64,000 bases of DNA from Octopus vulgaris (taxonomy: Eukaryota), in the NCBI GenBank assembly GCA_951406725.2, contig OX597819.1, forward strand, positions 127,162,001-127,226,000, in the 5' to 3' direction. The notes beneath the pieces were generated by a model. That model had not been told where the DNA came from. It searched no databases and saw nothing but the letters and a program-made list of their open reading frames with translations. This document shows positions 7,752-54,022 of the stretch, one piece after another. Both the position numbers and the translations under genes were made by a program. How positions within the stretch are numbered: the stretch's first letter is position 1; every line of letters begins with the position of its first letter.

Positions 7752-8562
7752 AAAGACTGAAATTCTTAACTAACCACACAGTGATACGGAAAATTACTTA
7801 GGTTTCGCTTTGGATGGGAAATTTCTAAAACCAGAGACTCTGACCAAGCATAAAAACGACAAAACCTTATAGTCCTATAATTATATATACAAATACTTAA
7901 GTGTAATGTGTCTGTGTGTCGGGCACAACATTATTACAATTTTGTTGTTGTTTCAAATCATATACACCGTACATAGATCATATTAAACTAAATTCTTCAT
8001 TAAACTGCATCGTAGTGTGCGTTTACGGAGTTGGTGATTTCATAAAGAAGCCGTTGCCATGAGTATTCTCTCGACATTATAAGGTTTAGCATTTTGTCAC
8101 CTCTACGTCTTTAGTTTCGGGATATTCCTGCGTGAGAAAGCGTAGGGTTGTACTGCAAGATCGCTCATTGGCCTGCTGTAGTAATTGTGACGTCATGACA
8201 TTGCAGATGCCTTCTTTTGTCTTCAGTCCCGGTTGCTTTGTAGATTTGTCGTCAAATAAGAGCAGTTCTGATGTGTAGGTTACGGGTGAATGAGGTCTGT
8301 ACGATGCAGTTTAATGTAGAATTTAGTTTGATATGATCTATGTATGGTGTATATGATTTGAAACAACAACAAAATTGTAATAATACTGTGCTCGACACAC
8401 AGACACATTACTCTTAAGTATTTGTATACATAATTATAGGACAATAAAGCTTTGTAGTTTTTATGCTTGATCAGAGTCTCTGGTCTTATAAATTTCCTAT
8501 CCAAAGCGAAACCTAAGTAAGTTTCCGTATCACTGTGTGGTTAGGGAAGAATTTCGGTCTTT
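7752..8562. repeat. About 260-bp imperfect inverted repeat with a 285-bp spacer
   Basis: 7752-8014 is the reverse complement of 8300-8562, with scattered substitutions. Confidence 0.92.
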
Positions 8563-9852: not shown

Positions 9853-10444
9853 TGGCGGTGAGCTGGCAGAAACATTGGCACGCCGGGCGAAATGCGAAGT
9901 CGTATTTCGTCTGCCGTTACGTTCTGAGTTCAAATTCCGCCGAGGTCGACTTTGCCTTTCATCCTTTCGGGGTCGATAAATTAAGTACTAGTGACGCACT
10001 GGGGTCGACGGAATCGACTTAATCCGTTTTGTCTGTCCTTGTTTGTCCCCTCTATGTTTAGCCCCTTGTGGGTAGTAAAGAAATAGGTATTTCGTCTGCT
10101 GTTACGTTCTGAGTTCAAATTCCGCCGAGGTCGACTTTGCCTTTCATCCTTTCGGGGTCGATAAATTAAGTACCAGTTACGCACTGGGGTCGATAGAATC
10201 GACTTAATCCGTTTGTCTGTCCTTGTTTGTCCCCTCTGTGTTTAGCCCCTTGTGGGTAGTAAAGAAATAGGTATTTCGTCTGCCGCTACGTTCTGAGTTC
10301 AAATTCCGCCGAGGTCGACTTTGCCTTTCATCCTTTCGGGGTCGATAAATTAAGTACCAGTTACGCACTGGGGTCGACTTAATCCGTTTGTCTGTCCTTG
10401 TTTGTCCTCTCTGTGTTTAGCCCCTTGTGGGTAGTAAAGAAATA
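9853..10444 (+). mobile_element. SINE family A (Meta-domain-like core), head plus three tandem body units
   Basis: GGCGGTGAGCTGGCAGAA head; three copies of GTTCAAATTCCGCCGAGGTCGACTTTGCCTTTCATCCTTTCGGGGTCGATAAA. Confidence 0.9.
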
Positions 10445-10777
10445 TATATATCGTCTGTATATTATTTGGTCAGTCATTAGAAACGCATGTTTTGAACCCA
10501 ACAGAGTCATACAATGAAATGGTTAATAAAGATTCCCATGTTTGTTTGAACCTGTAAATAGTAATTACCAGCCAATGCTGATCAGATAGCAGGTAATGAA
10601 GCTATTTTTCCCAGGAGGACTCTGGTTGCTTTTCTTTGTGTTCATAATGAATGAGGATACGTTTGAAAGAAAGTTGCTTCGTCTATTCGTCTACCGGAAA
10701 ACGTCAAATAATACACACATAAATATATAGATATATAAAAAACCCATTTACACACACACGCAAACTCATACGCATAA

Positions 10778-19665: not shown

Positions 19666-20688
19666 CTAAAGGCCCGAGCAGAAGAATTCCTTTTGAAGTG
19701 ATTTTCTAGGCGGAAACTGTACAGAAGCCCGTCTGTGCATGTATATACCGTATTTGATGGCCTATAAGACGCACGAGAGCATAGGACGCACCCTAGCCTT
19801 GGCTATTACGTTTGCAAAATAAATCACTGAAAGGACGTTAGGCAAAGTCAACCTCGGTGAAATTTAAACTCAGAATATGATCCAACCTCTATACATATGT
19901 AATAACTAGTGAGACTCGTTATTATGTAATAACTAGTGGGACTTGTGGAAATTCCACGAAATGGAAAACATTAAGAGGACTTACTAAAGAAATAAAGGAG
20001 GATTTGCATTTTTATAGCATTCATAGTTCTGAAACCCGTTAACAGTAATAAAGGCGCAGGAGTGGCTGTGTGGTAAGTAGCTTGCTAACACGCATGCGCA
20101 GTTAGTCAGTTGCTTCCTGTTCAGCCAGAGTGGACGCGAGTCAACCAGCTCCGTCCAATTAAAGAAAAAAGACCAAAAACGGAAAGTTGTCGAGGTAAGT
20201 GATTTTGTTTATTGTGAGTTGGGCATAATTTATTGCGTGCCAATTATTATTTCAGTAAGTTGTGTCCAACTCTGAGACAATTTCGCCTGCTCTCGGCGGC
20301 TGCTGTTTTTGTGTTTATTGAAAAAAAAACAGTGGAGGGGCGTATCCGTCTTCGATAAATTGAGTGAATATTTTTTTCACGTAATTGTGAGAATAGTATT
20401 GTGCTGTAAAGAACTTTTTGTGAAAACTGCTATATAGGGGAGTATTTTGCCTCCGAAGTTTGAACAATTTTTGCCAATTTTACACCAAGTTTTGTGGAAG
20501 TTGTGCGTTCCTGGTTCAATTTAGGCCGGGAGTACCAAATGGCCAGAAGGTTTTTGCTGTGTTATTGACTTTCTTTTTAACTTTATTTGACTCTCTCCTT
20601 TTTCACTGTGACTTTCTTCGGATTTTCTTTTCCTCTCGTTTTTTAGTTTTATTCTGAATACATTTAAAAAAAAAAAAAAAAAAAGAAC

Positions 20689-21555
20689 ATGGCAATGAAA
20701 AATAACAAACTTTTGGAATGGGAGATCATACCGCCTAAAAAGTGGTTAAAAGACCGTGAAGATAGGACGGTGGTGTTGAGAACCTACTCCAAGGCACTCG
20801 ACACCATCGCCCTATTCGAAAAGACGGCAATTGAAAAGGAGTTGGAAGAGTATCTGCCAACAATTAAATTCATTTCCAGGGGTGTCAAATATGCAACGGT
20901 GTGGTTGCTATTTGACACCCCTGAAGAGGCTTGCAAATTTGCTAGCAAACCCCTGGAGGGTAAGGAAATCTTATTCCTGCCCACGTACAAAAAAAAGAAA
21001 TTGATGAAAGCTTGGATTTGCGGTCTGCCACCCGACATAGAACCCGAGTGGATAGAGGAGACTATCCGCCGGGGTCTGGGTGGCAGCGAAACTAAGCTCC
21101 TTAATGTAAAAGTTCTTCCTGCGGCTGCTTGGGTTGGGTCAAAAGCAATTTTGACCCTGTGGACCCAATCAGCCAATCTGGTTCTTCCAGATTTTTTGAA
21201 AATGGCCGGGTGCAGGTACCCGGTGATGCTTGAGGGTCGTCCCCCTAAGTGTCATCGGTGCTTGGAGTCCGGCCACATAAAGAAGAACTGTCCCCGGGAA
21301 CAAAATAGGATCCCGGAACAGTTAAGTAAAACCCCTCTAGAAGAGGGAATGATAACGGCCGAGAAAGCAGAGGACTCCTCAAACAGAGGCCGAAAGAGGA
21401 AGGTGAGCAACAATGGGTGCTCACCAAAGGATAACAGGGATGAGGAGAGGAAGGCGAATCTTCCAGCCACGGAGGAGACGCACCCTCCCTCAGTTGAAAA
21501 GGGAAAAAAAAGAAAAAGAGGAAGAAAAACGGGACATTACCGACTGTCAGTGTAG
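20689..21555 (+). CDS. Gag-like ORF1 protein with CCHC zinc knuckle (L1/Tx1-type ORF1)
   Basis: 288 aa; RRM-like segments (VWLLFDTPEEA; AWICGLPPDI), knuckle CHRCLESGHIKKNC, basic disordered tail. Confidence 0.8.
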   Translation: MAMKNNKLLEWEIIPPKKWLKDREDRTVVLRTYSKALDTIALFEKTAIEKELEEYLPTIKFISRGVKYATVWLLFDTPEEACKFASKPLEGKEILFLPTYKKKKLMKAWICGLPPDIEPEWIEETIRRGLGGSETKLLNVKVLPAAAWVGSKAILTLWTQSANLVLPDFLKMAGCRYPVMLEGRPPKCHRCLESGHIKKNCPREQNRIPEQLSKTPLEEGMITAEKAEDSSNRGRKRKVSNNGCSPKDNRDEERKANLPATEETHPPSVEKGKKRKRGRKTGHYRLSV

Positions 21556-21926
21556 CACCGGAATGTCCCGGAACTTCGTCGGTTGGGGTTGTGCCACCGA
21601 CAAGAGAAGGAATACCGTTGGCGGGAACTGTGCCGCCACCGAAAGAACTGAACGTATTGGTCCTCTTCTATAGAGGAGGAGAAATTGAAAAAGTGATGGA
21701 AGAGCATCACAAGGGAGCACCTTTAGCCTTCACACAGGACCCCGAATGGCCTCCACAGGTAGCTGTGGAGGCCGTGACGTTCGACGTGACGCTTGGGCTA
21801 AAGGAGCTCAAGGAAGACTATAACTTGGTCCCGGGCGACGCTGACTCGGGACTTGATTACGTTCTGAGGGAGGCGTGGTTGATGGTGGAGGGCGCGGGCA
21901 CAAGCGACTTCGAGGACGATATGTAA
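21500..21926 (+). pseudogene. Probable frameshifted C-terminal continuation of the gag-like ORF
   Basis: Overlapping ORFs 21413-21673 and 21591-21926 can be linked through the A-run near 21505 and the G-run near 21585; coding-like GC content runs to TAA 21926. Confidence 0.55.
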
Positions 21927-22255
21927 TTATTGAACTGTTATTATTAGTAATGGACTGCTAACTCCAAAAATTGAAAAATTGTAAGAGGTTTAATACCTCG
22001 TTTTGTGTTTATTTTTATTAATAATGGACTGCTAAATCCAAAAATTGGAAAAATTGTAAGAGGTTTAATACCTCGTTTTGTGTTTATCCTTAAAAAGAAC
22101 AATGTTTTAGAGAAGCGAAAGTCGGCGGGCGCTTTTTGTCTTCTCCCATCCTTATCATCTTTCTTTCATTATCATTCACTTCATTAATGTTCCTCGTCCA
22201 GCCCGCAAAGCTAACTTAATCTGTGTACTGCCTTTATGGCAAATGTTTTGAAATA

Positions 22256-22636
22256 AAGTAGCTTGTTTACCAACCACATGGTTCCGGGTTCAGTCCCACT
22301 CGTGGCACCTTGGCAAGTGTCTTCTGCTGTAGCCTCGGGCCGACCAAAGCCTTGTGAGTGGATTTGGTAGACGGAAACTGAAAGAAGCCCGTCGTATATA
22401 TGTATATATATATGTGTTTGTGTGTCTGTGTTTGTCCCCCTAGCATTGCTTGACAACCGATGCTGGTGTGTTTATGTCCCCGTCACTTAGCGGTTCGGCA
22501 AAAAGAGACCGATAGAATAAGTACTGGGCTTACAAAACAATAAGTCCCGGGGTCGAGTTGCTCGATTAAAGGCGGTGCTTCAGCATGGCCGCAGTCAAAT
22601 GACTGAAACAAGTAAAAGAGTAAAAGAGTAAAAGAG
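22256..22636 (+). mobile_element. SINE family C (5' end displaced to 20053-20086)
   Basis: GGTTCAGTCCCAC..GGCAAGTGTCTTC..GTGAGTGGATTTGGTAGACGGAAACTG..(GTAAAAGA)n tail. Related copies at about 23590-23745, 27345-27780, 35970-36140 and 63540-63945. Confidence 0.9.
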
Positions 22637-23141
22637 TTCAGCCTTATTATTATATTCTTGACGTTCGTCTACATTCATTTCCTCGCATCTGCATCGTTTT
22701 CCTCTTTTTATTATATCTTCTCGCTGTTCCTCTCTGATCTTTTCAGGAGCAGCTAGCAACTGTGTTCCTTGTGAATCCAGAGTTTAGGCTAAAGCAAAAA
22801 ATGATTTAGACCATCTCTAGATGGAACGTTGTCAAGAGGCACTGATGCACTTGTCAACACTTACATTAAGTGTGCCCTCTAGCAACAAGTTGTTCGGTTT
22901 CTTTGTCCGGCAGAATTAACATATATCGGATAAGTTGGTAAATGCCGAAGAGATAATTCACTAGTTGTTAACGCTCTTACCTTTTTAACAAATATATTTA
23001 ACTTGTATAGAAGACCGACCTGATGGTAAACATTGTCTTGAGTCCAAATTAACTGATAGTATTATATCTTCATGCATGATTTTTTTTATATTTGTTTGTA
23101 TGTGGGTGACAATACTAAGCAGTATCTGTTATATATCTGCT

Positions 23142-23478
23142 GTGGAGGCGCAATGGCCCAGTGGTTAGAGCAGCGAACTCGCGGTCGGAGGATCGCGGTT
23201 TCGATTCCCAGACCGGGCATTGTGAGTTTTTATTGAGCGAAAACACCTAAAGCTCCACGAGGCTCCCGCAGGGGGTGGTGGTGATCCCCGCTGTACTCTT
23301 TCAACACAACTTTCTCTCACTCTTACTTCCTGTTTCTGTTGTACCTGTATTTCAAAGGGCCAGCCTTGTCACATTCTGTGTGTCACGCTGAATCTCCTCG
23401 AGAACTACGATCACGAGCAAGCTGTTCCGTTAATCGTATCAGCTGGGACCCTCATCGTCGCAACCGACGGAGTGCTCC
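23142..23478 (+). mobile_element. tRNA-derived SINE family B
   Basis: GGCGCAATGGCCCAGTGGTTAG (A box) .. GGTTTCGATTCCC (B box), then the conserved body. Confidence 0.9.
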
Positions 23479-23849
23479 TATATATATCTGCTATGTGTGT
23501 GTGTGTGTGGGGGGGTGTTTTACATAAATATGGATACAACAGATATATAGATGGATGGTAAAAGTAGATAGATAGATATAGATGCAGTTGTTGGTGAGTG
23601 GCAAGAAGTTTTCTTCTCAACAACATGGCACTGGGTTCTGTGCCACTGCAAACCACCTTAGGCAAGTGTCTTCTACTATATCATCAGACCGATCAAAGGC
23701 TTATAAGTAGATATCATAGACGGAGACTGGAAGTAACCCGTCGCATGAGTAAGTATCATGTTTTCCATTTTTTCTCTCGTTGTTTGCGTATTTAACTCGT
23801 TTGTTTTCGTACTTCATGTTGTTTACACAATTGGTGACGTCCTGTACAC

Positions 23850-42267: not shown

Positions 42268-42408
42268 TACGACAGGCTTCTTTCAGTTTCCGTCTACCAA
42301 ATCCACTCACAAGGCTTTGGTCGGCCCGGGGCTATAGCAAAAAACACTTGCCCAAGATGCCACGCAGTGGGACTGAACCCAGAACTATGTGGTTGGTTAG
42401 CAAGCTAA
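41995..42408 (-). mobile_element. SINE family C
   Basis: Reverse complement of 22259-22620. Confidence 0.9.
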
Positions 42409-44253: not shown

Positions 44254-44668
44254 TATTTCTTTACCACCCACAAGGGACTAAACACAGAGAGGACAAGCAA
44301 GGATAGACAGACGGATTAAGTCGATTATATCGACCCCAGTGAACTGGTACTTAATTTATCGGCCCCGAAAGGATGAAAGGCATAGTCGACCTCGACAGAA
44401 TTTGAACTCAGAACGTAACGGCAGACGAAATACCTATTTCTTTACTACCCACAAGGGGCTGAACACAGAGAGGACAAACAAGGACAGACAAACGGATTAA
44501 GTCGATTATATCGACCCCAGTGCGTAACTGGTACTTAATTTATCGACCCCGAAAGGACGAAAGGCAAAGTCGACTTCGGCGGAATTTGAACTCAGAACGT
44601 AGCGGCAGACGAAATACCGCTAAGCATTTCGCCCGGCGTGCTAACGTTTCTGCCAGCTCGCCGCCTTA
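44254..44668 (-). mobile_element. SINE family A, head plus two body units
   Basis: TSD CAAACACACATATAT. Confidence 0.9.
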
Positions 44669-47974: not shown

Positions 47975-49281
47975 AAACAAACTCAACTTAACACCTCGAC
48001 CTTCTACACAAACTAACGAGGAAACCGAATCGAATAAAACACCCTCCGAAATATTCGAGAAAGTTGAAAATCTATGCGATACAATGACGACATTCTTCAC
48101 AAACTTTACGAAACAAGAGCAACAAAAAGAAGGAACACATGAGAAGAACCGAGCAACTTCAACATTACAAATAAAGAACCAAGTCCTCCCCCAATGGAGA
48201 ACACTACAGCGAAACAGAAAATTCGCTTTTTGGAAAATGATACAAAATCAGAATAAAGCAGAGATTTACCAAAAATGGCTAGACTCAACACCCCTAGTCA
48301 TACCCCGTAAATTACAAATCAAACCCATCTCGGAAGAACCAGAAGAACAAAGAAAACTTTGAGAAAAAAATGTCATTAGAAAAAATGAAGCTGGAAATAG
48401 AACTACTTAAGCTGAGAGCTAAAACGAATGAAGAAAAAGTAAAAACCATAGACGAGGAAATCATCGAAGAAGTCATCAAACTAATAGACGACAACAATAC
48501 TGAAACATTAACAGCACTATGGAATGAAGAATGTGAAAAAGAGGAACTTAAGTCCCTCCAACGATGGGAAAAGAGCGTCATCTGGTTTCTAGATTATGAA
48601 ACCAACTTCAAAAATGAACACATATCCAACAACCCCTTCATAAAATTAAGCAAATCAAAACCAAATACCAATAGAACGGAACAACCACCAAGAAATCCTA
48701 CCACACTCTACACCAGAAAAGTACACCTAAAACACACCCCACACTACCTACACCAACCCCAAAACACCTACAGAGGCCCACCACACCAGTTCGAAAATAG
48801 ACATACCAACAGAGCAGAACAACCACCAAGAAATCCAAACACACTCTACACCAGAAAAATGCATTTAAAACGCACCCCACACTACCTACACCAACCCCAA
48901 AACACTTATAGGGTCCCACCACACCATTCCACGAACCTAAGAGCCACAACATACAATACTATAAAATACAACCCACATAACCAAACCAAAACGCTACTAC
49001 CAAACATCCACCCCAGGAACCAACCATACAACCATAACAAACAACAAATGCACTACGGAGGAAACAACTACCAACACAATACACCTGAGGAACTAAGACG
49101 TAACACTAGGTTCAACAACAGACTCCAGAACAGAGCACCACAAACTCACTCTGACAATTATAACAACATGAGACAGATAAATAATAGCTTTGAACATAAC
49201 TACACCAACCATTTTTTAGACCCCACACACAGGAACAGGGACACACGATGGCAAAGGACAAACAAAAGAAACCTCAGGTAA
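47970..49281 (+). pseudogene. ORF1 of the PLE: predicted helical/coiled-coil N-half and N/H/Q/P/R-rich low-complexity C-half; 5'-truncated
   Basis: ORFs 47883-48362 and 48370-49281 join into one (..EQRKL[R]EKMSLEK..) if TGA 48360-62 is a decayed CGA and one A is removed from the 7-A run. Same A/C-rich strand bias as the RT ORF, which it overlaps. Confidence 0.75.
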
Positions 49282-51546
49282 TTAAGATAATCAATCTCTC
49301 AAACAAAGAACTTACACCTAACGAAATAAGCATACTCTCCAAAGGACTTAAATTTACACCCACCCCACAACGTTCTAATTATTATGAAATGAAAGATGAT
49401 ATTTCGGAATTTTGCAGAAAACTAAGACTCACCGAGGCATTTCAAGACAAACAAATAGAGGAGGACTCAATAGCTAGAAACAAGAGCAATTACACCCCCA
49501 CCAAAGGTAAGAATAAAGCCTTAGACCGCTATTGTGACTACATAACTAATTTCCCGTTTCAATTCATCAAGAAACAAAAACACAGCCCTAACTTCAACAA
49601 AAGAGAATGGAACGACCTCATCAAACTAAGAGAAGACAAAACAATAACAATTAAGGAGGCAGATAAGGGCAACGCGATAGTAATAATGAATACAAACAAT
49701 TATAAAAATTTAGTGCTATCCCTATTAAGAGATGAAACGTATTATGAAAGGGCCCAACAGTATAACCAGCAAAAAATAATGCATAACCTTAGGACATTAA
49801 TCAACACATACCAAGAAGGACTCACGAACAAGGAGTATGAATACATCACTAACTTCAAATGCAAATCGAGTTTGTTCTATGGTATCCCTAAGGTACACAA
49901 AAGCCAAACCATTAGAGAAACGTGCAAAACATCCACCGACACACTCATCAAAATCCCTTCACCAAATGATCTTAAACTAAGACCGATAATAGCAGGGCCA
50001 GCATGTGAAACTCACCGCCTCAGCAATTTCTTAGACACACTTCTTAAACCTTTCCTAAAACACATCAAAAGCTACGTAAGAGACGATATAGATATGCTCA
50101 ACCACCTCCCTAAAACAGTCAATGAGAAAACCCTTCTAGTATCATTCGACGTAGTTAATCTTTATTCTAACATCCCTCACAACCTAGGAATAGAAGCAAT
50201 CACCTTCTGGCTGAATAACTACCCCTTTGAACTCCCAACTCGCATAAACAAAGACCTTATAATAGAAGGACTTAGATTCATTTTAGAGAACAATTATTTT
50301 ATTTTTGACAATGATTTCTACAGGCAAAGATCGGGAACAGCGATGGGCACGCGCACTGCACCATCTTTTGCCAACCCAGTGATGGGATACCTCGAGAAAA
50401 TACTATACCGGATGACACTCGAGAAATATGGAAACACCTTCGCCACCTATATCCATAACAACTGGAAAAGATACCTCGATGACTGTTTCATCATCTGGGA
50501 CAAAGGCATAGAGAAACTTGAGGAATTTAAAATTCTATTAAATGGAATAAATGACAATATACAATTCACGATGGACCACAACGAAAAAGAATTACCATTT
50601 TTAGACATCCTCATTAAGAAAACCGGCAACAAAATAGAGACAGATATCTACTATAAACCGACAGACTCTAAACAGTACCTACCCTTTGATTCATGCCACC
50701 CACGACACACTAGAATGAATGTCCCTTTTTGTTTAGCTAGAAGGATTTGCACCATAATATCAGACACAAACACCCGACACACACGTCTCCAGGAACTTAG
50801 AACCACACTCACAAATAGAAACTATCCACAGCCCCTAATAGACAGTGCAATCCAACGGGTACTTAAATTAAGTATAGAAGACCTGAGACAAACAAAACCA
50901 AAAAAGAAAGAACAATTAAAAACCCTTCCCTACATCTCTACACACAACCCACTCAACAATGAGGCCTTCAACACCATACTACAAAGCACAGCCCTACTAA
51001 AGGGAGACCCAAAGATGAACCGGATCCTCGAAACACACACCATCATTAAAAGTAAACGGCAACCAAAATCCTTGAAAAGGATTTTAACCCAAGCTACGCT
51101 GCACTCAACAGCAACCACAAAACCAGCAGTTAGAAAATGTGGAAGGCCCAACTGCGGAATCTGTGTCATCTTGAAAGAAGGATCAGAATTTATACTGGAA
51201 CAAGGCCACCAGTTCACCATTAGAACAAACTTCACCTGCGCATCAGAAAACTTAATTTACGTCATAACATGCGCAGGCTGCAATAGGCAGTATATAGGCC
51301 ATACAAAAAATAGCTTACGTAACAGGATGGCGGTGCATAAATCACAAATTAGAAACCCTGATTACCGCAAAATACCGGTCAGCGGACACATAGATAGATG
51401 TGCTGGAAATGTAAATCCGAAATTTACAACTAACCCGCTCTATAAATTCAGTGACAACGCAACCTTCACACAACGCCAAAATAAAGAACTATATTTCATA
51501 AAAAAAATTTAGACCAAGTTTAAACACCCTGGGCCAGGAATACTAA
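49248..51546 (+). CDS. Penelope-like element polyprotein (reverse transcriptase, Cys-rich linker, GIY-YIG endonuclease), Neptune-like
   Basis: 754-aa ORF with PLE motifs IINLS, LSKGLKFTPTP, IKEADKGNAIV, FYGIPKVHK, LRPIIAG, SFDVVNLYSNIP, QRSGTAMG, RYLDD and DIYYKPTD. Linker CGRPNCGIC; endonuclease LIYVITC..C..QYIGHT..LRNR..H. One extra A in the A-run near 51500 truncates the natural end FIKKFRPSLNTLGQEY* (stop ends 51546). Confidence 0.95.
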
Positions 51547-51699
51547 AACAAAAGATAAGTCCTCCGAAAAGGAGAACCAAATTTCACCACGGCCGCTACT
51601 TCAAACAGACACTCACTCTGATGGAAATATGCCTTAGTAAAAAAGGAAAAAAATTATTTCGTGCAAATCTGACCCTGATACATACGATACAGCTAAGGG

Positions 51700-52165
51700 T
51701 CAGACCCGATTCTGATTGGTCAACAAGTTGATTACGTCTAGCTCTGCTAGAATGGACAGGATACAAACAGGGGACAGTCATTAGTCAGAATATTGATGAC
51801 GTCCTTTTCTGCTTGAATAGTCACCTAACAAGTACAGACAGGGGGCAGATCTAATGTAGCTATAAGTCGTGATTGGGCAGAATCTGGATGACGTCCCGCT
51901 ATGCTTGACTAACGAAGCGACTGGTCAAGACAGGAAACAAACAAGAGGGAGTTATAATGCAGCGATTGGTCAAAATAATGATGACGTCCCGTTCCACTTG
52001 ATTAAAGCCACCTAACGAAACGATTGGTCAAAACATTGTTGACGTCACGCTACGCTAGATTGACCACCTAACAGGCATTATAAAACCGAGCATTTCACAA
52101 AAACTCACTAGAACCACCCAGCGAACTTCCACCATGGGTCATCACAATTGCTTAAGGTAAAAATG
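51700..52165 (+). promoter_or_regulatory. PLE pseudo-LTR promoter: five CCAAT/CRE modules, TATA, Inr, mini-exon and splice donor
   Basis: ATTGG/ATTAG at 51715, 51780, 51872, 51965 and 52023, each followed 12 nt later by T(G/T)ACGTC. TATAAAA at 52079, TCACT at 52105, ccaccATGg at 52134, AG|GTAAAA at 52157. Confidence 0.7.
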
Positions 52166-52409
52166 AATTCCTCGCTCTTTCGGAAACATCAATCTTCTGT
52201 ATTGACCGCTTTCCACCACTTTGATCTGTTTTTTGTATTGAATACGTATCGCCACCGTGGGCCACTGCATCGAACACTTTGAACATATACTTCAAACTAT
52301 ATATCAACTATACATGAAATATATATCAACTATACATGAACTCTAAGATGTCTGACTCCGTTGTGTATTATAAATGAATTTCTTGTGTTTGACGGCATGA
52401 GCTGTCTCT

Positions 52410-52478
52410 TTTTATATATAACTTTTTTTGATAAGGTTCATTTCAGGAACTGAAACATGTTATAATGTATATATAAAA
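52410..52478 (+). ncRNA. Minimal type I hammerhead ribozyme (U3-A8 variant) in the PLE pseudo-LTR
   Basis: TTGATAA-GGTTC-atttcag-GAACT-GAAA-CATG-TT; palindromic ACATGT stem III; imperfect AT-rich stem I. Confidence 0.65.
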
Positions 52479-52524
52479 ATTAAAAATTGTATAATACAGC
52501 AGCATTTTCGAACTTCATTTTTTT

Positions 52525-52628
<104 letters not shown>

Positions 52629-52639
52629 GTTTAAATATT

Positions 52640-54022
52640 TGTTGTGCAAATGTCCATCAGGTAAAGAAAATGATCGCACATGCACTAGGAGCTAGTATAA
52701 GAGTTACCCTAAAAGGCCACACATTTGAATTTAATAATATAATATATGCCCAGGACGAGGGGGCAGCCATCGGTGTTAGTATCGCTGGTGATGTGGCCAA
52801 CCTCTTCATGGTATGGTGGGACAGAAGGCTTAAAGAATGCCTACTGCAGAAATCCATACTCGTAAACATGTACTCTCGCTATGTTGATGATATCAATATA
52901 GTAGTAAAGGCACCCCCACAAGAGAGTAATGTTGATATAGTAATAGAAACTAATACTATGGAGAGCATCCAGCAAATAGCTAACTCCATCCACCAGAGTA
53001 TTAAGGTCACAATAGACTACCCCACTAAACACCCCAACCATAGACTACCAGTACTAGACACTGAACTCTGGCTAGAAATTGTGAAAAATAAAACCCAAAT
53101 CCTTCATTCATACTATGCAAAACCTATGGCCTCAAAATACCTGATCCACCGGAACTCAGCCATTGCGGGCAATGCCAAATTCAATATTTTGATGGCAGAC
53201 CTCGTCAGAATAATGAGAAATGTGTCACGCATGTGCGAGCCTACAGAATTAAAGAGACACATACAGTATTTCATTCACCGCATGCAGTTCTCAGGTTACA
53301 GCCATAAAGAAAGGGTCAGAGTATACAAAGGAGCCATGAAGAAATTTGATAATATATTATGTAATGATAGGAATGGGATTTGCCCACTCTATAGGAACAA
53401 GTCATGGAACACTATAGAAAGGACAAAAAAAAAAAGAAAATAGGGAAGGCCAACTCTTGGTATGATAGCCATAAATACCAGAGTGCCATGTTCGTTGACA
53501 CCACCCCTGGAGGTGAACTGGCGTACCGCTTTAGAAGGACCCTAGATAAACTTAAACTAAGAATTAAGGTTGTTGAAAAGCCAGGCAACCCTATCAGATC
53601 TATAATTGGTAGAAGCTATCCCTTTAGTAGAACTCTCTGTACGGATAACTATTGCACTGTATGTAGATTTAGCCCACAAACAAACTGTAAAGCCAAAAAT
53701 GTGGTCTATAGTATAAGATGTATAGAGGGACGATGCAGTAACAAGACAGTAACATACGTAGGGGAAACAGCAAGAAGCATTGGTGAGCGGGTGAATGAAC
53801 ATTGGAGACAACTCAAGGAAGGTAAAAGCTCATCGATTCTGTACCAACACGCTCAACAAGAACACGGGGGGATCAATCAATAACATAGAGATTAAGATAT
53901 TGTCCACACATAGAACAGATGCAACATTTAGACAAATTACAGAAGCTACACATATAAAAGAAAATAAACCTAGCCTGAATAGAAAACTAGAATGGAGCAA
54001 TAGCGCACACCACAACATATGA
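52640..54022 (+). pseudogene. Second PLE (5'-truncated RT and GIY-YIG), distinct lineage
   Basis: YAQDEGAAIG..VANLFM, YSRYVDD, LPVLD, YAKPMAS, RMQFSGYS. After a frameshift in the A-run near 53430: CTDNYCTVC, NVVYSIRC..TYVGETARSIGERVNEH. After a second shift near 53868: [22 protein letters not shown]. Confidence 0.92.

Follow-up and report, generated by a model that had tools for sequence, protein, structure and literature searches.

In the 64-kb window (the whole stretch of Octopus vulgaris DNA analysed here), the insert that splits a SINE head belongs to a multi-copy retroelement family that has ORF1 only and resides at a single fixed position within the head of an abundant SINE. Its insertion likely relied on an endonuclease and reverse transcriptase supplied in trans by an L1/Tx1-type LINE resident at the same base. 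To this reading as a whole we assign a probability of about 0.86. The system as a whole is well supported as a radiation of ORF1-only passengers on a SINE-targeting Tx1-type LINE.

An earlier note on this DNA had described a 2.17-kb insert dividing a SINE head between duplicated target sequences, and this description holds. The insert measures 2171 nt (20085-22255) and lies between two copies of AAGTAGCTTG, which occurs only these two times in the window when both strands are counted (Table 1). The leader of about 600 nt and the CCHC-knuckle ORF named in the note are both in place. At the 3' end the hairpin and AATAAA are as claimed, but the 3' UTR, which had been called short, is 329 nt long and contains a tandem duplication. 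Similarly, the acidic C-terminal domain is present, but the ORF is not continuous: the reading frame of the window copy stops after 288 codons, at 21555, and the domain is encoded in another frame, ending at 21926, the frame shifting at an A-run before the domain. The leader of the window copy is one of three common types (37, 17 and 11 copies, plus 3 others, among 68 copies with the head in range), and leaders are swapped among subfamilies. As the note had stated, the insert has no trace of ORF2 (tblastn with the ORF2 of the partner LINE described below, best E 0.66), and none was detected in the window either. No long terminal repeats were found in the insert, where self-comparison revealed the 75-bp internal duplication only. 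An LTR retroelement or endogenous retrovirus was rejected, since LTRs are absent and the 5'-truncated relatives agree with insertion by a LINE mechanism. The A- and B-box-like motifs of the host SINE are labelled by their presumed likeness to the Pol III consensus; they are visible, yet an Rfam search gave no tRNA match, and the Rfam matches returned for the sequences examined were noise.

Table 1. Positions of the features of the insert and its host SINE in the window.
Feature	Position	Strand	Remarks
Host SINE head, left part	20053..20084	+	A-box-like TGGCTGTGTGG at 20063-20073; same head before most family copies
Left target-site duplication AAGTAGCTTG	20075..20084	+	
5' leader, 604 nt	20085..20688	+	First bases element-encoded, target-like CTAAC
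ORF1-type gene, ATG at 20689	20689..21926	+	Frameshifted in window copy
Two predicted RRM-fold domains (aa 14-103, aa 104-185)	20728..21243	+	AlphaFold, Foldseek, VIA
CCHC zinc knuckle	21250..21291	+	Pfam zf-CCHC E 0.008, 16.7 bits; below 20.8 cut-off
A-run, place of frame change in window copy	21503..21511	+	
Acidic C-terminal domain, ~90 aa	21630..21900	+	Conserved in ORF1-only sister families
75-bp tandem duplication in 3' UTR	21941..22087	+	
3' UTR motif GCAAAGCTAACTT	22205..22217	+	Imperfect reverse complement of duplicated target
Terminal hairpin TGCC-TTTAT-GGCA	22229..22241	+	TGCC-N5-GGCA common to sister families and partner LINE
Right target-site duplication AAGTAGCTTG	22256..22265	+	AATAAA (22252-22257) overlaps
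Host SINE body, GTTTAC variant	22256..22640	+	B-box-like GGTTCAGTCCC at 22287-22297; AGTAAAAG tail repeats 22611-22637

Other repeats were also seen in the window. A second tRNA-like SINE head lies downstream of the host SINE (23140-23480). Long open frames of 327, 770 and 162 aa at 48298-53880 on the forward strand probably belong to another retroelement, which is unlike the partner ORF2 at E 1e-3. Tandem 184-bp units at 9902-10457 and 44254-44618 are mutually inverted and 96% identical over 277 nt, and an inverted repeat pair of 263 nt (7752-8014 and 8300-8562; 92% complementary, 285 nt apart) is either MITE-like or composed of two opposed repeats.

In 20 other natural copies of the family, the frame is open over 412-427 aa. 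AlphaFold modelled two RRM folds over aa 14-185 (blocks with pLDDT 70-93), followed by the CCHC knuckle and a disordered linker. The best Foldseek matches were tandem-RRM proteins (E 1.5e-4), and VIA aligned 83 residues to La (Z 9.0, rmsd 2.8) and 72 to 4n0t (Z 8.4, rmsd 2.3). The ORF product is predicted to be an RNA-binding protein made up of two RRMs, the CCHC knuckle, the linker and a 90-aa domain. Its only near full-domain protein match was a protein of Octopus sinensis, 64% identical. The family ORF is under purifying selection: dN/dS, a check that the earlier note had proposed, was 0.10-0.46 in 28 pairs from 8 copies chosen for their open frames, with dS near saturation between families. 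In the C-terminal domain (19 acidic and 5 basic of 93 residues), a G and a W-P-x-Q motif are invariant across the ORF1-only sister families. A model built from 15 sister-family segments reached pLDDT 80 in 2/5 models and 52 in two others. No homologue of this domain was found by Foldseek at E 0.001, the best VIA Z was 4.9 and the Atlas gave no usable match, although empty searches of this kind establish neither a new fold nor an absence of homologues. Two matches among 1.84 billion representatives were discarded as repetitive, unrelated proteins, and the domain matched neither ORF1 nor ORF2 of the partner LINE.

Among 74 copies, the A-run has lengths of 5 to 11 that are dispersed over the tree, which suggests that the frameshift is likely recurrent slippage or an assembly error. 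A programmed frameshift was considered and rejected, the 16 changes on the tree giving no support for an inherited state. The ORF1 of the partner LINE is also often frameshifted at A-runs before its own C-terminal part (L221-L240). Five chimeras (L046, L050, L056, L065 and L067) combine an N-terminal half from a sister family with the C-terminal domain and 3' UTR of the window insert's family.

The family has at least 209 copies, as judged from a 33-mer free of target sequence with 209 exact matches in the genome. An exact 27-mer across the 3' joint occurs at least 207 times, compared to 0 for a reversed-pattern control. When the insert by itself was searched against the genome as DNA, 40 of 3257 candidates were scored and gave 89 matches of up to 98%, many with both ends in common. 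Each of the 30 loci fetched has the target 10-mer at its end, and in 29 the SINE body follows. The same SINE base is used at 100/100 places listed for the target-free pattern; 90 of these coincide with 27-mer junctions (compared by eye), and the other 10 were fetched and show the same base with single substitutions. The flank shares of 100/100 for the family and 30/30 for the partner LINE compare with the >20% of flanks used to define target specificity in PMC4494074. The empty SINE is represented by at least 70,920 genome occurrences of a 30-mer. The suggestion that the insert possibly targets this SINE is thus borne out at the level of distribution, and the copies, with their common ends and shared SINE position, are neither a single copy nor devoid of duplications.

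A SINE head on the left and a SINE body on the right of nearly every copy could also be produced by one insertion into a SINE master copy, followed by amplification of the SINE-plus-insert composite as a unit. The enrichment of host SINEs for the CTAAC variant (57/88 compared to 40/100 empty copies, Fisher p 0.0008, the latter a hand count over the first 100 empty copies) would agree with such a history. However, host SINE variants are random on the 74-copy insert tree (20 changes against a shuffled mean of 21.1, with 175/500 shuffles as low), which indicates that the copies were inserted independently. For the left-junction variant, the same tree requires 4 changes against a shuffled mean of 10.9 (0/500 as low). 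Among 30 sampled copies, divergence is 8.2% between hosts (120 nt compared) and 1.6% between insert ends (160 nt compared), a fivefold difference, and the two are uncorrelated (rho 0.05). The same base is used by truncated copies and by unrelated families. Amplification of a composite is therefore extremely unlikely, and independent insertion at a fixed base is the reading that we carry forward.

The structure of the left joint was examined in the same copies. Host-specific changes within the first 10-11 bases are present on both sides in L101, L105 and L021, which marks this stretch as a genuine duplication. The bases that follow (CTAAC or CTTACC) travel with the element. The earlier note had remarked that the flanks differ beyond 10 bp (GCTAAC versus GTTTAC); this mismatch is explained by the element's own 5' end, which mimics the target. 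As the note had it, GCTAAC, the left form, is matched by the SINE copy near 42400; that copy is without a head. Five sister-family copies (106-747 nt) and three LINE copies are 5'-truncated and joined straight to the SINE head; no such copy of the window insert's exact family was seen among the copies examined. L035 is truncated and lacks the head; L032 has lost its interior and is ~100 nt long, retaining both ends and an intact duplication. Two further candidates for truncation were rejected: the head at L131 is part of a SINE lying upstream, and L220 starts with leader-like sequence of its own. At L329, the left joint of a family copy carries the SINE head in triplicate (33-nt units).

A search for an autonomous partner with the same 3' end had been suggested, and a LINE that shares the site, the duplication and the hairpin was found. 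It is 5.45 kb long, with an ORF1 of 467 aa carrying a CCHC knuckle and an ORF2 of 1133 aa carrying APE, RT and zf-RVT domains. At least 104 copies are present; all 20 fetched top matches are full length and 97.5-99% identical, with ORF2 open in 6, and 30/30 pattern loci are on site. Its first bases are target-like, the same as those of the passenger. The nearest solved structure to its ORF2 is human L1 ORF2p (E 8e-67, compared to 6e-20 for R2). By the predicted domains of ORF2 (APE, RT and a C-terminal zinc domain) the LINE is a member of the L1/Tx1 group; the searches for relatives returned no named Tx1 reference, and the Tx1-type label is assigned from architecture and target specificity. 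The LINE was obtained from the junction pattern and not from zf-RVT loci, of which the 30 best were rejected as partners, being other Tx1-type families with no SINE target at the 3' end among the rows listed. Many other Tx1-type LINE families (L271-L290) have an open ORF2, a related 3' hairpin and AATAAA. Several Tx1-type LINEs have recurring downstream flanks (e.g. L274-L277, L283 and L285; an ATT run after L289) and may have targets of their own.

From the shared site and 3' end, the passenger is likely mobilised in trans by this LINE. The alternative that a different, unsampled LINE with the same target mobilises the family is unlikely in our estimation. It would account for leaders and most of a 3' UTR unlike those of the LINE found (best blastn E 0.12, with alignable DNA confined to the last ~35 nt), and for sister families that are older than the young, ~99% identical LINE family; an older subfamily of the LINE, at 87-92% identity, does exist. 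Against it, the partner LINE is the sole ORF2-bearing element among the non-family junctions that were fetched. A junction pattern that excluded the window insert's family turned up 72 further junctions at the SINE site. Thirty of these were fetched: 27 have a 3' UTR of the passengers' ORF1-only lineage, two are members of a second short lineage and one is the LINE. Moreover, family and LINE copies are both young and interleaved in arrays. The LINE and passengers are stacked in mixed arrays at L229/L335, L237, L239/L333 and L331, and five ORF1-only units from at least 3 families stand head to tail in one SINE (L079 and L334, G000:C4:151.50-151.51 Mb). We therefore retain the co-resident LINE as the likely source of the insertion machinery, with the ORF1 comparison covering 20 other LINE loci, so that another partner or a closer parent may exist.

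The passenger ORF1 and the LINE ORF1 are homologous (E 1e-22), the 3' ends match and the window copy is frameshifted, all of which would be expected if the passenger had arisen recently from the resident LINE by internal deletion and its ORF1 were decaying. However, identity is only 28-29% over 194 aa, which points to an old ORF1-only lineage with many sister families rather than a recent deletion. A tree of 37 rows, rooted at its midpoint, was built with ORF1s from 20 sampled LINE loci; in it, a long branch (100/100) separates all sampled LINE ORF1s from a clade made up of 18 ORF1-only rows, one unlabelled row and the O. sinensis protein. The C-terminal domain matches neither ORF of the partner, the passengers do not have the N-terminal extension of the LINE ORF1s, and the ORF is under selection as described above. 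A recent deletion derivative is thus very improbable, and an old lineage of passengers is preferred. The second short lineage (L117 and L214) groups among the LINE ORF1s in the same tree, which suggests two origins of the ORF1-only state. A 1.5-kb SINE-targeting element (L202:5410-6893 and L214) has a LINE-like ORF1 and neither ORF2 nor the family C-terminal domain, and likely represents the independent origin. L048, a candidate for an ORF2 end, proved to be a fragment of an ORF1-only sister family.

The earlier note had called the element HAL1-like. The logic of this comparison stands, as the element has an ORF1 homologue without ORF2 and is amplified as a unit, but the lineage does not, being Tx1-type and not mammalian L1. 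Pfam gives zf-CCHC only, and the family protein aligns with the ORF1s of resident Tx1-type LINEs; no L1 ORF1p was among the rows listed for the Foldseek and VIA searches, which by itself is not decisive. Judged by its sequence, ORF1 is not of mammalian-type L1 origin, and the element is not a HAL1 in the strict sense.

The terminal hairpin is paired in 95.8% of cells across 24 ends, with a variable loop; its 4 bp include one compensatory change, and 37/500 shuffles have as many. The 3' end as a whole folds no better than shuffles (z 0.22). In the window copy, GCAAAGCTAACTT has 6 nt of exact complementarity to the target (p 0.20). Complementarity of the 3' UTR to the target reaches p <=0.05 (7-10 nt) in 8/24 ends, which are related by descent; it extends to 9-10 nt in several sister families and 9 nt in the partner LINE, compared to 4-5 nt in 13 LINEs with other flanks. 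The second short lineage has no target complementarity in its 3' UTR. This complementarity is a lead, not a result. The SINE and LINE tails share one low-complexity match of 23 nt (E 0.006).

Target-primed reverse transcription is the established mechanism of LINE insertion, and the insertion of the passenger may be pictured accordingly. A promoter in the leader would yield element RNA, which the element's ORF1p would coat. The ORF2p of the LINE would bind the terminal hairpin and nick the bottom strand at GGT/AAG, and the RNA would then be reverse transcribed from the target, priming on its final As. Second-strand cleavage ~10 bp further on would give rise to the duplication. The target-like first bases of the element would anneal, complete the 5' joint and rebuild the landing site, and a landing site rebuilt at each joint would allow further copies to stack head to tail. 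These first bases fit annealing-type 5' joining, which has been described for LINEs (PMC4245944). More doubtful is a multi-tier parasite system with partly RNA-assisted targeting, in which the 3' UTR motif, having the sequence of the primer strand, might pair with the SINE top strand and free the primer, and the old ORF1-only lineage might have exchanged the N- and C-terminal parts of the LINE ORF1 for a new 90-aa domain by which its RNA captures the partner's reverse transcriptase.

HAL1 (half-L1) of mammals is a non-autonomous non-LTR element encoding ORF1p only (PMC5753468, PMC5786205). The octopus element resembles it in having ORF1 only and in its amplification as a unit. It differs in that HAL1 is of the L1 clade, whereas the ORF1 here has two predicted RRMs, a CCHC knuckle and an added domain and is related to Tx1-type LINE ORF1s; insertion here is single-site, and no target specificity is given for HAL1 in the parts of these two papers used here. 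ORF1-only elements are listed in the Jockey, L1 and CR1 clades (PMC5786205), and ~40% of drosophilid telomeric families are ORF1-only (PMC13534243). The ORF1-only telomeric elements such as HeT-A, and Ag-Sponge, share the ORF1-only state, and HeT-A-like elements are also targeted and form head-to-tail arrays with autonomous partners (PMC5786205, PMC13534243). In contrast to the element described here, HeT-A and Ag-Sponge are of the Jockey and CR1 clades, and the target of HeT-A is the chromosome end and not a dispersed SINE. Among Tx1 LINEs, Tx1L inserts in Tx1D, and Tx1-Mar in Mariner-N4_AMi with SINEU passengers (PMC4494074). They have in common with the octopus system a site in another mobile element, passengers with the same target and tandem insertions around the duplication. 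However, as described in that paper, their targets are DNA transposons or LTR elements and not a SINE, preference amounts to 13-90% for SINEU and insertion by Tx1-Mar is into two regions compared to one base in 100/100 listed copies here, and the Tx1-Mar passengers are non-coding whereas those here encode protein (PMC4494074). Multicopy small-RNA genes serve as safe sites for Dewa, Keno, Mutsu and Dada, and for Dada some of the duplications fall within the tRNA A box, points of likeness to the octopus system; the targets of these elements are functional RNA genes or spacers, and Dada is a DNA transposon (PMC3706591). The O. vulgaris repeat annotation reports 13 recently active L1-Tx1 families, and the words 'target', 'nested' and 'non-autonomous' are absent from its main text (PMC13282606). 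ORF1-only elements and transposon-targeting Tx1 LINEs are known; a combination of the two on a SINE was not met with in the literature searched. Nor did that literature (Repbase, subscription papers and supplements lay outside its scope) yield a description of a SINE-targeting Tx1 LINE or a Tx1-derived ORF1-only family, and these families may already be listed in Repbase or in the library behind PMC13282606.

The usual relation is reversed in this system, as the SINE is the landing pad. A host SINE copy would likely be silenced by an insert placed between its A- and B-box-like motifs, although insertions affect only a few hundred of more than 70,000 copies. Builders of site-specific insertion tools could find a two-component element of this kind, with its defined multi-copy target, of interest. 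Together, the LINE and its passengers are a young natural system whose copies can be counted, suited to asking how single-base specificity arises in an APE-type LINE endonuclease; the same system bears on why some non-autonomous elements keep ORF1 under selection.
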